From Mucilaginibacter sp. (GTDB taxonomy: Bacteria > Bacteroidota > Bacteroidia > Sphingobacteriales > Sphingobacteriaceae), in NCBI GenBank assembly GCA_965225845.1, contig CBDDBL010000001.1, forward strand, positions 86,889 through 150,888: a stretch of DNA of 64,000 nucleotides, written 5' to 3'. The notes under the pieces were generated by a model that was given only the letters and a program-made list of their open reading frames with translations, made no database searches and had not been told where the DNA came from. This document shows positions 55,114 to 62,590 of the stretch, piece after piece. Position numbers and translations under genes: made by a program. Every line of letters begins with the position of its first letter. Position 1 is the first letter of the stretch.

Positions 55114-58100
55114 CTATCGTTGTGCCTGGCTCAATACACTGGCAAACTTACCCGCGTAGTCTTTATACTGCGCGGCATACTTGTCAGATAGTTCGTTTTG
55201 GTGACCATCCTTAGTAAACTGGGCCAAACCACCTAGAACCTGAACGCCGATCTCTATAGTTTCCGGATCTATCTGTCCGCTGTTATTTTGCAGCAGGTAA
55301 TAGTTATAATCCAGCTGATCTGTCAGGTAATCGTCAATGTCTTTAGAGATCTTATTGCCGATCACTACATCATTCAGCCGGTACGCCGCCTGGGCCAGGT
55401 ACAACTTTTTACCCTCAATCTGTATATACGGGTTAAGGTCGGGTAGCTCCTGGTCATATTTGGCTAATACTTTTAACGCCAGGTCGGGGCGTTTTTGCGC
55501 CGTTAATGCCTGTGTAAGATCAAGGAAAGCGGAGAGCAAACTGGTATACGACATAAATTTGGCTTCATGATCCAGGTATTTGGCGGTTTTAAAATTACCC
55601 CACTTAAATTTGTTCATTACATTATCGTACATCACCATGGCGTTCACATTTTCCCTTTGATTTTTTAAGGTGGTATCCGGCGTAAAAGGTATTAAATGAT
55701 AGGCAAAACCTTCTTTATACAAATAGGGCTCTAAGCCGATCATATTTTCATCGCCAACGGTTGATGTAAAACAGATAGGGCGTTTCCAGTGGTTATGCGC
55801 CAGGATATCGATCATGGCTAAATTCTCCTTGGTAACATAATTAGGCGGGAACTTAAATTTCAAAGTATCCGTCAATCTCGCCCTGTCGCTATCCGGCACT
55901 ACGCCACTTTTGATAACCTCATCCTTATTAATCGTGATCTTAAAGTTTTTTGTAGGCAGATAATTAGCCGACTCGCCGTTTTGGTACTGCGCCATGGTAG
56001 CCGGGTTATCCGATGTAATGAAATCAAACACGTCACTTAACTCGGTATAGCCGGGAATTTTCCTGTCATCAAAATAGATCACATCGCGCACGCCATCCTC
56101 ATATTTTTCATACGGCATGGTGATCGGCAGCGGTGCGGATTCATTCATCTTGCGTGTCATTTGCCTGATATACCAGCTGCCCGAGAACAAACTCAGGTTT
56201 ACAATGCGCACATCCGGGCGAATGCCTTCCACTTCCTGATCATACCATAGCGAGTAGGTATCATTATCGCCATAACAAAACAAAATGGCATTTTTTGGGC
56301 ACGAGTTCAGGTAATTATAAGCCATATCATGCGGAACCATTTTGGTGGAGCGGTCATGGTCTTTCCATTCTTCTTTAGCTAATACAACCGGGCCAGCCAA
56401 CAGGCAAACTGCCGTGGCGGCAAAAGCAGCAACTTTAGCGCTAAGTTTTTTGCGCAATACATCAGCAATGGCAACAACGCCAATCCCTATCCAAATAGCG
56501 AAGGCGTAAAAGGAGCCCACATAACTGTAATCGCGTTCGCGGGGTTGTATGTTGGGCTGGTTCACATAAAGCACAATCGCGATTCCGGTGAAGAACCATA
56601 GCAGTGTAACCACCAGCGCGTCTTCCTTGCGGCGGTTAAAATGGTATATCAACCCAAACAACCCAATAATTAACGGCAGGGCGAATAGTGGCGTATAAGT
56701 AACACCTTCCAAAGGCCTTGATGGGTCGCCGCCTATTACTGATTTTGGCAGATGCTTACTGCCATCAAAAATCCCCGACGTCCAGTTGCCATCAATACTG
56801 GTCATGCTGGCCATGCCTTCGGCATCATTGTAACGGCCCACAAAATTCCAGAAGAAATAGCGCCAGTACATCTGGTAGATCTGCCAGCTGAACAGGAATT
56901 TCAGGTTATCGCCAAAAGTTGGCGACTGCCCCTGCGGCAGGTTTAACCACGACGTATAAAACTGTACAGCGCTCGCGTAATCCTGGTCTCCCTGGGTAAT
57001 GTACATGCGTGGCAGTATGGTGTTATGATCATAAATAAGCTTTTGTTTTTTACCGGCAACCTCATATTGGGTTTTTCCTTTACGGTAAATTGTAGCGCCG
57101 TCGGTTTGGTCGATAGCCTTCGCATCAAAATACGGACCGTACAGTAATGGCGTTTCACCATATTGCTCGCGGTTTAAATAACTATTCAGGATAAAGGCAT
57201 TATCCGGGTGGTTATTATCCAGATCAGTGTTGGCGGTGGCGCGGATAGGAATATAAGCAAACGAACTATAACCCAGGTAAATAAATGTGCAGCACAAAAA
57301 CGCTAAATTAAGCATTGGCTTTTTGTATTTAGTGGTATAGTATAAGCCCGCGATCAGTAACGCGATCAGCAATACGATAAATACTGCCGCGCCGCTGCCG
57401 AAGCCCATCCCTAATGTATTCACAAAAAACAGATCGAAATAAGCTATACCGATAACCGTATAATTCCTGATACCATATTGCACAAATACCAGGATAACAA
57501 TACCCGTCAAAATGGCTAAAAGCGCGTTTTTAAGGGTGATCCTTTGCGTTCGGCGCAGGTAATAAACCAGTGCCAAGGCCGGGATTGTGAGCAAATTCAA
57601 TAAGTGGATCCCAATGGATAAACCAATTACGTAAGCAATAAAAACGATCCATTTATCGGCGCCCGGATCATCGGCATGGGCATCCCATTTTAATATTGCC
57701 CAAAATACCAGCGCAGTGCAGAATGACGACCAGGCAAACACGATAGTTTCCACAGCAGAGAACCAAAAGGTATCGGTATAAGCGAAAGCCAGAGCGCCAA
57801 CCAAACCCGCACCCATAATAAGGTATACTTTTGACTGATCCGCATCTTCTTCGCCTTTATAAGCAATCAGTTTTCTACATAGCGCGGTGATAGACCAGAA
57901 CAGCAGCATAATAGTACTGCCGCTTGCCAATGCCGAACCCATATTGGTAAAATAAGGCACTTTAGCATTGTTACCCATCGACAAGAGCGAGAATGCCTTG
58001 CCCAGCATGGCGAAAACCGGATAACCGGGCTCGTGGGCCACTTGCAGGCGGTAAGCGCAGGCAATGAATTCCCCGCAATCCCAAAAGCTTACAGAAGGTT

Positions 58101-58179
58101 CGAGAGTGAGGATATAACTGATGGAAGCGATGGCGAAACACAGCCAGCCTAATAAAGTATTAATTTTTCTATACTGCAT
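55114..58179 (-). CDS. DUF2723 domain GT-C glycosyltransferase (TMEM260-like)
   Basis: Start likely ATG 58179; PSVSFWDCGEFIA, HEPGYP, AVETIV, GIHLLNLL, YGDNDTY, RPDVRIVNLSL. Confidence 0.92.
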   Translation of the reverse strand: MQYRKINTLLGWLCFAIASISYILTLEPSVSFWDCGEFIACAYRLQVAHEPGYPVFAMLGKAFSLLSMGNNAKVPYFTNMGSALASGSTIMLLFWSITALCRKLIAYKGEEDADQSKVYLIMGAGLVGALAFAYTDTFWFSAVETIVFAWSSFCTALVFWAILKWDAHADDPGADKWIVFIAYVIGLSIGIHLLNLLTIPALALVYYLRRTQRITLKNALLAILTGIVILVFVQYGIRNYTVIGIAYFDLFFVNTLGMGFGSGAAVFIVLLIALLIAGLYYTTKYKKPMLNLAFLCCTFIYLGYSSFAYIPIRATANTDLDNNHPDNAFILNSYLNREQYGETPLLYGPYFDAKAIDQTDGATIYRKGKTQYEVAGKKQKLIYDHNTILPRMYITQGDQDYASAVQFYTSWLNLPQGQSPTFGDNLKFLFSWQIYQMYWRYFFWNFVGRYNDAEGMASMTSIDGNWTSGIFDGSKHLPKSVIGGDPSRPLEGVTYTPLFALPLIIGLFGLIYHFNRRKEDALVVTLLWFFTGIAIVLYVNQPNIQPRERDYSYVGSFYAFAIWIGIGVVAIADVLRKKLSAKVAAFAATAVCLLAGPVVLAKEEWKDHDRSTKMVPHDMAYNYLNSCPKNAILFCYGDNDTYSLWYDQEVEGIRPDVRIVNLSLFSGSWYIRQMTRKMNESAPLPITMPYEKYEDGVRDVIYFDDRKIPGYTELSDVFDFITSDNPATMAQYQNGESANYLPTKNFKITINKDEVIKSGVVPDSDRARLTDTLKFKFPPNYVTKENLAMIDILAHNHWKRPICFTSTVGDENMIGLEPYLYKEGFAYHLIPFTPDTTLKNQRENVNAMVMYDNVMNKFKWGNFKTAKYLDHEAKFMSYTSLLSAFLDLTQALTAQKRPDLALKVLAKYDQELPDLNPYIQIEGKKLYLAQAAYRLNDVVIGNKISKDIDDYLTDQLDYNYYLLQNNSGQIDPETIEIGVQVLGGLAQFTKDGHQNELSDKYAAQYKDYAGKFASVLSQAQR

Positions 58180-58344
58180 TGATTTAAGTTTTCGATATGT
58201 AAATATCAAATTTTAGGCGCGCAACAGGCAAACTAATTACACACTTTAACATACTTTAGCATAAAACCATTAAGTACAGCCATTTAACTTATTAGGTTTG
58301 TGTACCCCCATTAGTATTTAATATATGATGAGGAATTAAAAGCA

Positions 58345-58496: not shown

Positions 58497-58634
58497 GAAT
58501 TTGATAGCGCAGCAAATCTGAATTCGGTGAGTGATCAATAATTGTAATCGCAGGATCTTCTTCAACAGACCCTGCGATTACTTAATAGCCGCTTAATTAT
58601 TTATAATTGTTACGCTATAGCTAATTAATTTATG

Positions 58635-61600
58635 TTAAAACGCATACCATTTGTTCACGCCATCACTTACCAGGCGAATAACACCAAATATTGTGTCAGA
58701 AGTACTATTAACAACCTGGTAAGCCGGGTCATATATTCTGTCGGCTGCTGCTGACGTAATTATCGTAATGCCTGAATTTGGAGTGACTGTTTGCATAATT
58801 ATGACAACCTGCCCTGCCACGAATGAAGATGCGGCAGGCAATCCTACATAATATGTAGGGCCATCCTGACTGATTAAATATAAGCTTTTCGCATTTGTTG
58901 ATGGTATATAAAAACTTGATGAAGAAACAGGATTTATAGTCAATATAGGTGAGGGAGGAGCCCACGCAACGCTGGTGCCATTATAAGTAAGTGCATTACC
59001 GGTTGCAGCACCTGTTGTTGATATATCGCCCGTAGCTACTTTACTAAATGTCAGGTTCCCACCTCCGCTGCCATGCAATACACTGTTAGTGCCAGCACCC
59101 TGGCCAGCAAATTGCGCGGAGGTAAGGCTAAGCGTAGTATTTGTCGCCGAGGTGACACGGCCTTTGGCGTCTACCGTAAAAAGTGATGCTCCCCCCAAAA
59201 TACCATAACTACCAGCTGTAACCCCTGTTGTAGCAAGTGAAACAGCTCCTGTACTGGAAACACTGCTTACATCGCCTGATAAGCTTGTTGGCGCAGTTGG
59301 TATAGCCCCACCCGTACCTGTTATGTATACCTGGCCTGCAGTATTGGTTGTGCTTGCTGTTAGACCTGCTCCGGTAGCACCTGCATTTCCTGGTGAACCT
59401 ACCGCACCCGTATTTCCGGTTGAGCCCGGATTTCCTGCTATATTTAAATTCCACGAGGTATAGGTAGGATTTCCCGGGCCGTGATAGGTATCTATAGTAA
59501 GCGTAATGCTTGCACCGATTATGTTCGTGACAATACCTTCCACATAGTCACTAGGAGTTGTGGACGATGTGAATCGAATACGTGAACCGACTGTATATGC
59601 AAATGGGTATGTGGAGACCGTGAAAGTTTTTGAGCCATAACTTGTACTGTTTGCGGAAGCAGAAGTAAAAGGGCCGTAACCATTACCGGTTGTACCTGTT
59701 GCGCCGGTCACGCCAGTAGCACCGGTCACGCCAGTTGCACCGGTCACACCAGTAATACCTTGTGAACCCGTAACACCAGTTGCACCAATAGCGCCGGTTG
59801 CTCCGGTAGTGCCCGTAACGCCGGTTGCACCAACAGAACCTGTAACACCGGTTGCACCCTGTAGGCCCTGCGCACCTGTAACACCGGTTGCTCCCGTAGC
59901 ACCAACTACACCTGTATTACCAGTAATGCCTTGAATACCTTGTGAACCAGTAACCCCAGTTACACCTTGGATACCCTGTGCTCCGGTAGAACCCGTTACA
60001 CCCGTAGCACCAATATCACCCGTATTGCCGGTAATGCCCTGAATACCTTGTAAACCAGTAGCGCCTGTAACCCCGGTTACACCTTGGATACCCTGTGCGC
60101 CGGTAGAACCAGTTACCCCGGTAGACCCTGTTGCGCCAGTAACCCCGGTTACACCCTGGATACCCTGCGCTCCGGTAGAACCAGTTACCCCGGTAGACCC
60201 AGTTGCGCCTGTAATACCCTGGATACCCTGAATGCCGGTAGAACCAGTTACCCCGGTAGACCCTGTTGCGCCAGTTGCGCCTGTATTGCCAGTAACGCCT
60301 TGAATACCCTGTAAACCTGTAACCCCAGTTACACCCTGGATACCCTGAATGCCTTGAGCACCTGTATTTCCTGTTATGCCCTGAATTCCTTGAGCGCCTG
60401 TTACTCCGGTTACACCCTGAATGCCTTGAATACCCTGTGAACCTGTAACCCCAGTTACACCCTGGATACCCTGAATACCGGTAGAACCTGTATTTCCAGT
60501 TATGCCTTGAATTCCTTGAGCGCCTGTTACTCCGGTTACACCCTGAATGCCTTGAGCACCTGTATTTCCTGTTATGCCCTGAATGCCTTGAGCGCCCGTT
60601 ACTCCGGTTACACCTTGTATTCCCTGGATACCTTGTGAGCCTGTAACCCCGGTTACACCTTGGATACCCTCTGCTCCAGTAACCCCAGTTGTACCCTGAA
60701 TGCCCTGTGCTCCGGTAGAACCAGTCGCACCAGTTATACCTTGAGCGCCTGTCAATCCGGTTACACCCTGAATACCCTGTGAGCCTGTAACCCCGGTTAC
60801 ACCCTGAATACCCTCTGCTCCAGTAACCCCAGTTGTACCCTGAATGCCCTGTGCTCCGGTAGAACCAGTCGCACCAGTTATACCTTGAGCGCCTGTCAAT
60901 CCGGTTACACCCTGAATACCCTGTGAGCCTGTAACCCCGGTTACACCCTGAATACCCTGAATACCTTGTGCTCCCGTAACACCCGTTGCGCCCTGTATGC
61001 CTTGAATACCCTGCAAACCAGTATTGCCCGTCGCACCAACAGCACCTGCAGTACCGGTTACACCCTGTATTCCCTGGATACCTTGTGCACCCGTAACGCC
61101 TGTTGCACCCTGTATGCCTTGAATACCCTGCAAACCTGTTGCTCCTGTAACACCGGTTGCACCCTGTATGCCTTGAGCACCTGTAACACCTGTTACACCC
61201 TGTATGCCCTGCAATCCTGTAACACCCTGAACACCTTGAGCTCCTGTATTTCCTGTTATGCCCTGAATACCCTGTGCACCGGTGTTTCCCGTAATGCCCT
61301 GTATCCCTTGTGACCCCGTAACGCCTGTTGCACCCTGTACACCTTGAATACCCTGCAAACCTGTTACTCCTGTAACACCGGTTGCACCCTGTATGCCTTG
61401 AATACCTTGTGACCCCGTAACACCTGTTGCGCCGGTAGCTCCCGTAACACCAGTTGCACCTTGTAGGCCCTGCGCACCGGCCGGGCCTACAGGGCCTATT
61501 GCTCCGGGTGTTCCCGGAATTCCCTGTGCGCCATTGGTACCTGCTGGTCCCTGCGGGCCTGTAGCGCCTGTTGCCCCGGTAACTCCTTTGGATCCGCCCG

Positions 61601-61994
61601 GGTTAAACGAATAGATAGCATAGGGGACACTCAATAACTCTGATGCACCCAGCAGCACATAACCTGACCCCAGGTCAACCTCTGTTTGAATATATTTTTG
61701 GCCCGATGCCCAGTTGATGCCGGCATAACTCCCCTGGGTAACATTGCCGTTGCCCACACTAATGACAAACAGGCCGTAGGTATCCGTAGTTACCGTTTGT
61801 GTTTCCTGGTACTCAACCGTGCCTGTCGGCGAGCCTGTAAGAATGGACAGCCTGACATTAATCTGCTTATTGGTGAGCAAGGCTCCGTTTGAGCCACGCA
61901 CGATCGCCTGGTACTTAAAGGCCTGCGATTGCGCTAATGACTTTCCGCCACAGATGAAGATGAAGAGTATTACAAGAAGTAAAAGTTTTTTCAT
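58635..61994 (-). CDS. Exported collagen-like fibre protein (N-terminal YQA...SVPYA domain, 212 Gly-X-Y triplets, tail-fibre-like C-terminal modules)
   Basis: Signal peptide; residues 134-769 are uninterrupted Gly-X-Y; a second short GXY run follows; [12 protein letters not shown] motif. Confidence 0.93.
59688..61595 (-). repeat. Collagen triple-helix repeat region (9-bp periodicity)
   Basis: 1908 bp = 636 codons = 212 triplets, dominated by GVT, GAT, GIQ, GAQ, GSQ, GST, GNT, GIT, GLQ. Confidence 0.97.
60664..60951. repeat. Perfect 144-bp tandem duplication inside the collagen region
   Basis: 60664-60807 and 60808-60951 are identical base for base (48 aa, 16 triplets). Confidence 0.95.
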
Positions 61995-62038
61995 ATATCC
62001 CTATATAATTGTGATAGTTCGTTCAGTTTTATGTTTTT

Positions 62039-62590
62039 TTAATATTTAACCAGTTTAACCTCGCCGTGGAAAAGGGTTGGGTTGACTACCTGTACAAAAT
62101 AAACACCGCCCGCGTAATGGGATATATTAATCGGGAAGTAATAATAATTTATAGCTTTATAATCTACGGTTTGCGATTGGAGGATCCTGCCCATGGCATC
62201 AAACACGTTGATCGTGTAAACTCCGTCGGGTACATGGTTAAAGGCAAGTTTAACTACCCCGCCATTGGCCGGGTTAGGAAAAATACTCAGTGATTTGGGC
62301 GAGTTTGCCAAAACCTGCGATACTTCAAGGTCGGGCTGCTCAAAGCCGGTGGTTAAATATAAGTGGGGGTTGATCTCTGTATTGGATAACAGGCCGCCTA
62401 TAGCTTCGCCCGCAACAAAACTTAACGTAACATCAGCATTTTTGTAGGTATCACCCGCTGAAGACACTACCGAACGGGTTATATATTGCGCATGAGAAGC
62501 ACGTACTGCAAATACAGTTACGCCAATCATTAGGAAATTGCGCGTTAAATTTTTCAACGCCATAAAGATAAACTTATTGCAATTATTCAT
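62039..62590 (-). CDS. Small T9SS type A sorting-domain protein
   Basis: Signal peptide (alternative start 62563); VVSSAG...LSFVAGE...TGFEQP core; C-terminal domain IFPNPANG...GVYTINVFDAMGRIL...GGVYFVQV...KLVKY. Confidence 0.9.
   Translation of the reverse strand: MNNCNKFIFMALKNLTRNFLMIGVTVFAVRASHAQYITRSVVSSAGDTYKNADVTLSFVAGEAIGGLLSNTEINPHLYLTTGFEQPDLEVSQVLANSPKSLSIFPNPANGGVVKLAFNHVPDGVYTINVFDAMGRILQSQTVDYKAINYYYFPINISHYAGGVYFVQVVNPTLFHGEVKLVKY

Follow-up and report, generated by a model that had tools for sequence, protein, structure and literature searches.

The 64,000-nucleotide stretch of Mucilaginibacter sp. DNA analysed here (contig CBDDBL010000001.1 of assembly GCA_965225845.1; hereafter the window) encodes a compact gene pair that is a candidate two-component surface-fibre system. 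The initial annotation had described two co-oriented genes 44 bp apart, and both are present on the minus strand: a small gene whose product carries a type IX secretion system (T9SS) sorting tag (62039..62590), hereafter the partner, and a gene for a collagen-like fibre protein of 1119 aa that carries no such tag (58635..61994; Pfam Collagen, E 4.9e-101). The open reading frame (ORF) of the partner spans 183 aa, and alignment with 27 close homologues suggests that its true start is Met11 (nt 62560), which gives a protein of 173 aa. Scanning of the 44-bp spacer (61995..62038, minus strand) found no terminator-like stem, while a terminator-like hairpin with a 15-bp stem (58544..58581, minus strand), 54 nt past the fibre stop codon, likely marks the end of a two-gene operon. 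The locus is present as a single copy in the 3.6-Mb genome, and a full-length homologue of the small gene occurs in 4 of 25 genomes of the genus. A metagenomic relative, with 82% identity in the small protein, keeps the pair between SusC/SusD and DoxX genes, unlike the source genome, where mgtE and a DUF2723 gene flank it; the pair therefore behaves as a portable unit.

The partner had been read as a signal peptide, a core of about 55 aa and a T9SS type A C-terminal domain (CTD), and profile searches bear this anatomy out with Pfam and NCBIfam scores above their cut-offs. Residues 103-170 match Por_Secre_tail (PF18962; E 1.8e-8, 35 bits against a cut-off of 27), and TIGR04183 scores 28.6 bits (cut-off 23). 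The CTD as a whole (aa 103-183; 62042..62284, minus strand) is also recovered by structure prediction and structural search: when the small protein was modelled alone with AlphaFold2 (AF2), its CTD formed a beta sandwich with a predicted local distance difference test score (pLDDT) above 90, and Foldseek placed it close to the CTD of RemA bound in the T9SS translocon (8gl6_D, template-modelling score TMt 0.74). At the other end, residues 11-34 form a Sec signal peptide (62489..62560, minus strand) whose cleavage, SHA/QY, leaves an N-terminal Gln; AF2 predicts a helix in this region (residues 3-19 of the 173-aa form), and an equivalent leader is found in all 33 of 33 aligned members of the small-protein family. 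This leader and that of the fibre were read from the sequence and from homologue alignments rather than from a dedicated predictor.

Between leader and CTD lies the core domain (aa 35-90; 62321..62488, minus strand), delimited by homologue alignments with the pattern Q..R.V..S.G....LS...GE......LTxGFxQP. The core proposed in the initial annotation (QYITRSVVSSAGDTY...SFVAGEA...LTTGFEQPD) proved to be real and conserved among homologues, with the family consensus Q...P.V..S.G.....LS.T.GE...ET......LTQGF.QP. The uncurated family comprises 9,174 cluster representatives (E <= 0.001), of which most are 155-170 aa long and have the core at about positions 20-68, and searches of the core against Pfam, NCBIfam and PDB sequences returned no match. 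In the AF2 model the core reaches a pLDDT of just 55-66; a segment that is conserved but folds poorly in prediction would be compatible with one that becomes ordered upon partner binding.

In every architecture found, the core is joined to a T9SS tag. This tag is a type A CTD in most proteins, and a type B CTD (CHU_C, E 1e-22 to 1e-25) in a subfamily of 172-265 aa (loci L107, L109, L120, L122, L127, L128, L132, L135 and L137), in which core and CTD are sometimes separated by an SprB-like, Cys-containing repeat. Some of the type B core genes adjoin or follow fibre genes, and several are solitary. The core is also found in large CTD proteins (L093:1514-6127, L024:11788-13722, L025:8319-11459 and L112:4252-6204), immediately ahead of the CTD in one of 1537 aa and N-terminal in those of 644-1046 aa, where other domains are inserted ahead of the CTD. 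The type of tag thus swaps while the core and its fibre neighbour stay, and we therefore argue that the core is the functional end of these proteins and the CTD their address.

The fibre protein likewise has the anatomy first proposed for it, namely a Sec leader, an N-terminal domain (N-domain), a 636-aa collagen rod and a C-terminal head. The leader (aa 1-21; 61932..61994, minus strand) is cleaved at SLA/QSQ and contains no lipobox, its sole Cys, Cys15, being preceded by F-I-F-I. Its position and the pattern ...AQ/(A)PQ.F.YQ are common to 90 relatives, and relatives of the fibre are consistently cleaved at ...A/Q without a Cys. The N-domain follows directly (aa 22-132; 61599..61931, minus strand; FKYQAIVR...W..G...LLSVPYA), and AF2 predicts that it folds into a seven-strand beta sandwich (pLDDT 87.6, predicted template-modelling score 0.78). 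Foldseek returned only generic Ig-like and phage minor-tail matches for this domain (template-modelling scores 0.4-0.56), and no match was found in Pfam, NCBIfam or PDB sequences. The possibility that the N-domain is itself related to the small protein was rejected (hhalign probability 0.7%).

The rod (aa 137-772; 59679..61586, minus strand) consists of 212 uninterrupted Gly-X-Y triplets by repeat count and matches PF01391; its 636 aa would extend over ~182 nm if wholly triple-helical, and the collagen repeat suggests that the fibre trimerises. Position X is mostly Val, Ala or Ile, Thr occurs at position Y in 116 triplets and Gln does so in 80, and just 6 Pro and 3 charged residues occur among the 636. 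Such a near Pro-free and near charge-free rod is atypical of known bacterial collagen stabilisation. The head (aa 773-1119, 347 aa; 58638..59678, minus strand) includes a second short Gly-X-Y run (aa 854-877) and ends in GVNKWYAF; it has a weak match in PHROG (phrog_31840, E 3.9e-7) and no relative among PDB sequences. The absence from the fibre of a T9SS CTD, a lipobox and an autotransporter anchor, a central point of the initial annotation, stands: Pfam and NCBIfam searches at E <= 0.1 gave collagen-type matches only, with none to PF18962, PF13585, TIGR04183 or TIGR04131, and no YadA-type anchor barrel was found by Pfam. A cryptic CTD was sought by aligning the small-protein-family profile with the last 200 aa of the fibre, and none was found (hhalign probability 0.2%).

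Relatives of the N-domain are widespread in Bacteroidota, numbering at least 160 in a search limited to proteins of similar length. The domain always stands straight after the signal peptide, starting at residues 21-30 in nearly all relatives, and is 40-55% identical across the phylum, whereas the rods and heads that follow it are unrelated and include collagen, Peptidase_S74, Lcl_C, Fib_succ_major and YadA head repeats. A conserved N-domain combined with unrelated rods and heads is as expected for a common docking module. Among 78 complete N-domain fibres, none carries Por_Secre_tail or CHU_C, 23 terminate in Peptidase_S74, a chaperone that cleaves itself off, and collagen is present in 23; the fibre described here is of the collagen, non-S74 type. 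Self-cleavage by S74 would remove a C-terminal tag, which would give a rationale for a tag supplied in trans at the N-terminal end, and in non-S74 fibres the C-terminus would be the distal head, which offers a similar rationale. A phage origin of the N-domain was considered and rejected: just 3 loci were found in 2.9 million viral contigs compared with at least 595 confirmed in genomes, and the domain is therefore cellular rather than viral. The viral-contig loci are three IMG/VR contigs that encode an N-domain protein (L104, L105 and L106), in what may be either prophage flanks or true phage genes.

The two families are strongly linked when the search starts from the partner. Around 12 full-length homologues of the small gene from other genera and families, an N-domain fibre gene is adjacent in 10 (10/12). 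From a class-wide search, 40 core genes were sampled at random: 27 abut an N-domain fibre gene, 2 more share a cluster with one and 11 are solitary; the observed adjacency of 68% compares with ~0.2% by chance, an estimate of our own that follows from the ~3-4 fibre genes carried per genome. The reverse scan covered 80 loci recovered with the N-domain profile, taking one genome per species, and yielded 98 fibre genes, 94 of them with enough flanking sequence to evaluate. For about 48 of these 94 the cluster includes a core gene, whereas the other 46 lack one within ~7 kb. Among the ~48 partnered fibres, the core gene is immediately upstream in ~31-33 (gaps of 0-130 bp), immediately downstream in ~7 and elsewhere in multi-fibre arrays in 10. 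Linkage is thus strong from partner to fibre (27/40), but starting from the fibre, where the initial annotation would have taken near-universal upstream linkage as support, only about half of the genes are partnered.

Co-occurrence across genomes follows the same trend. Of 151 genomes of the class, 83 encode both modules, 4 the core only, 10 the fibre only and 54 neither (odds ratio 112, Fisher p 1e-25, kinship ignored). Copy numbers correlate (Spearman 0.68), with 167 core versus 330 fibre genes in the 83 genomes that have both modules, and the ratio of ~2 fibres per partner suggests that one partner may serve several fibres sharing the N-domain. In a mirror-tree comparison of 27 adjacent pairs, evolutionary distances of the core and the N-domain correlate with r 0.585 (partial 0.48), compared with r 0.44 (partial 0.25) for the CTD and the N-domain; this contrast favours a tie between core and N-domain weakly, because the CTD is more saturated. 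The fibre-bearing genomes without a detectable core gene are G053, which has 7 fibre genes, mostly of ~345 aa, together with G033, G052, G093, G117, G137, G147, G163, G165 and G174. Similar ~345-aa fibres, with no partner within 7 kb, are encoded in soil Flavobacterium (L048, L072 and L079).

Together, anatomy, linkage and co-occurrence make it fairly likely that the small protein, addressed by T9SS, is dedicated to docking with the fibre. The N-domain could instead suffice by itself for export or anchoring through other machinery, with the small gene being an unrelated T9SS cargo that hitch-hikes in the genome. The 46 of 94 fibre genes without a nearby partner, the ten fibre genomes without a core gene and the existence of solitary core genes fit such an arrangement. 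It would have to accommodate, on the other side, an adjacency more than two orders of magnitude above chance, the genome-level odds ratio, the correlated copy numbers, and an order, orientation and very short gap length conserved over many families, and we give it a very slim chance.

A partner tied to the fibre need not be its carrier or its anchor. It could act as an accessory or assembly factor, such as a basal or tip cap, a folding helper in the periplasm or outside the cell, or a secreted signal of fibre production. The folding-helper version would be analogous to phage tail-fibre assembly proteins, operon linkage alone is silent on the role, and fibres outnumber partners by about 2:1. 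Small non-enzymatic CTD proteins do exist, an example being PorA, described as a ligand of PorXY (PMC12152298). However, the conserved feature common to all fibres is the N-domain, which does not require such help, and S74 fibres already bear their own chaperone. In addition, a T9SS tag of one type or the other is kept in every architecture, which suggests that the small protein acts at the outer membrane or outside it, so that we regard an accessory function as improbable.

The small protein instead probably exports the fibre, moors it, or both. In the mechanism we propose, partner and fibre would each cross the inner membrane via Sec, using leaders of the signal-peptidase I type that leave a mature N-terminal Gln. 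An N-terminal Gln is usual for signal-peptidase I substrates in Bacteroidota (the Q-rule). The fibre would trimerise in the periplasm via its 636-aa collagen rod, and the 55-aa core at the mature N-terminus of the partner would bind the 110-aa beta sandwich of the fibre, possibly by strand addition. The type A CTD of the partner would then be recognised by SprA and PorV, and the small protein would therefore carry the tag-less fibre across the outer membrane. After export, the partner would hold the base of the fibre at the cell surface, with the rod and the variable head pointing outwards as an adhesin. We infer core-N-domain binding, co-export, surface anchoring and the adhesive role. The specific step in which the small protein docks onto the N-domain and carries the fibre through the T9SS translocon is put forward tentatively, at somewhat under even confidence. 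A self-contained two-gene surface-fibre module is the best explanation that we find for the pair, and our belief in it likewise stops a little short of the halfway mark. More speculative is the extension to a general rule, under which core and N-domain form a general docking pair and T9SS exports cargo in trans via the type A or type B CTD of a mini-protein; on present evidence we would call this possible and somewhat doubtful. Similar reserve applies to its corollary that large trimeric fibres cannot bear a C-terminal tag themselves, the C-terminus being either a receptor-binding head or a self-cleaving S74 domain.

The machinery required by this mechanism is encoded in the source genome, with SprA at 2558 bits and PorV at 422.6 bits. 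According to PMC12618676 and PMC9143113, type A CTDs use the PorV shuttle and become linked to anionic lipopolysaccharide (A-LPS), PorP-like proteins being responsible for the retention of type B cargo; T9SS substrates exit the translocon CTD-first together with PorV (PMC10994853). The PorU sortase (NF033707) was found in 0 of 25 genomes of the genus, including the source genome, compared with full-length matches in 15 of 16 genomes from other families, and no PorU-like ORF stands beside porV in the source genome. Judging from this gene content, the small protein would more likely be kept via its uncleaved CTD on PorV, or released, than be linked to A-LPS. In the source genome, type A CTDs occur in just 5 ORFs. 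The best-scoring of these CTDs (54.9 bits) belongs to a second mini-protein (G000:C2:730945-731184, minus strand; open frame of 179 aa), which has no core.

Export of the fibre by the partner need not accompany its retention. The partner could be exported alone by T9SS and serve as a surface receptor for the N-domain, the fibre crossing by another route or being released and recaptured. Linkage and co-occurrence fit this equally well; tags of both type A and type B give surface retention in the species studied so far (PMC9143113 and PMC12618676); and an equivalent N-terminal domain has been proposed to bind a surface element in Bdellovibrio (PMC10769870). The ten partner-less fibre genomes imply that another route or receptor must exist at least there. 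Against it, no other outer-membrane route is evident for a Sec-exported 1119-aa fibre without lipobox, barrel or CTD, and the lack of PorU in the genus weakens covalent anchoring of the small protein. We consider a receptor-only role unlikely, while giving it more room than an accessory one.

The carrier and anchor interpretation of the initial annotation is thus supported in part, by the anatomy of the two proteins, the absence of a CTD from the fibre, the linkage, the co-occurrence and, unforeseen in that annotation, the fusion of the core to tags of both types; an obligatory role for the partner is cut against by the unpartnered fibres, the core-less genomes and the absence of PorU. Several observations weigh against docking and export by the partner. 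A partner within ~7 kb is missing for about half of the fibre genes, 11 of the 40 sampled core genes are solitary, and 10 of the 93 fibre-bearing genomes (11%) have no detectable core gene, which means that the fibre can exist without the partner. The odds ratio carries no correction for phylogeny, and the comparison of SprA with fibre occurrence lacked power, SprA being present in 146 of 151 genomes. Without PorU in the genus, covalent A-LPS anchoring is unlikely here. In addition, a monomeric tag serving a trimeric fibre leaves the stoichiometry unaccounted for, and no precedent for a T9SS cargo without its own CTD was found in the literature searched.

By architecture as described, the system to which this module appears closest is that of the mosaic adhesive trimer (MAT) fibres of Bdellovibrio bacteriovorus. 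In MAT proteins, a signal peptide is combined with a conserved, beta-rich N-terminal domain (~130 aa), a long trimer and tips of the S74 or another type, and the presence of the fibres on the cell surface was demonstrated (Caulton et al. 2024, PMC10769870). The same authors presume that the N-terminal domain attaches to some element of the surface, still to be identified (PMC10769870). As in MAT proteins, the leader of the present family is followed directly by a beta-rich N-domain, here of ~110 aa, and the tips are interchangeable (23/78 S74). Unlike the present family, MAT fibres belong to another phylum, without T9SS, have no described partner gene, and contain a beta helix where a collagen rod is found here.

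Other known systems share single aspects of the pair. The SprB/SprF modules of T9SS type B (PMC9143113 and PMC12618676) are also two-gene units of Bacteroidota in which an adhesin or filament needs a neighbouring gene product for export and retention, although in those modules the adhesin bears the CTD and the partner is an outer-membrane beta barrel, whereas here the CTD is borne by a soluble mini-protein. Tat hitch-hiking in Escherichia coli (PaoABC, and the small and large hydrogenase subunits) resembles the proposed export in that a single subunit bears the targeting signal and brings a folded partner across with it (PMC4273604). Unlike the T9SS version suggested here, which is a proposal, Tat hitch-hiking takes place at the inner membrane, relies on a twin-arginine signal at the N-terminus and is backed by experiment.

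Among collagen-like proteins, Lcl, Scl1/SclA and Scl2/SclB share the Gly-X-Y triple-helix rod with the fibre, and their NCBIfam models match it via the collagen repeats. The fibre scores 318.7, 301.9 and 256, below the respective cut-offs of 500, 325 and 400; it differs in its N-domain, and it has neither the C-terminal domain of Lcl (Lcl_C, by Pfam) nor an LPXTG motif. BclA, a Thr-rich Gly-X-Y trimer on the Bacillus exosporium, docks onto the small basal protein BxpB/ExsFA through an N-terminal segment and ends in a globular C-terminal head. By description it is thus comparable to the proposed arrangement, although its setting is the spore surface of a Gram-positive bacterium, where both an outer membrane and T9SS are absent.

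The initial annotation knew of no characterisation of such a two-component system, and full-text literature searches found no paper describing the module, nor any describing a trans-acting CTD partner, T9SS piggy-back or hitch-hiking, or CTD-less cargo. T9SS cargo is defined by its own C-terminal tag, and a widespread class of long, tag-less fibres paired with a tagged mini-protein would, if the interpretation is correct, add a trans-acting mode of export or anchoring and represent the first hitch-hiker mechanism for type IX secretion. This would also identify the kind of surface receptor that is missing for MAT-type fibres, with a core family of >9,000 partner clusters, and account for the way in which Bacteroidota display exchangeable adhesive fibres, collagen-like as well as phage-like, at the cell surface. 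Candidate roles of these fibres include binding to particles, prey or hosts and use as phage decoys.

Directly downstream of the fibre gene, beyond the hairpin, the window encodes a TMEM260-like/DUF2723 GT-C glycosyltransferase of 1031 aa (55114-58209, minus strand; PF11028, E 2.9e-67), which has an 83%-identical paralogue on another contig. The DUF2723 gene is present in 2-4 copies per genome in the genus, with orthologues at most 69% identical. Given the position of this periplasm-facing enzyme beside a Thr-rich collagen rod, it might glycosylate the rod; the DUF2723 neighbourhood of the fibre is not kept in the close relative L103. In another relative from the same genus, the gene after the fibre (L012:11402-12025, minus strand) encodes a protein whose N-terminal FVGQIQ.FGFNFAP.GW..C.GQ resembles, by eye, that of a phage-tail-collar/microcystin-dependent protein.

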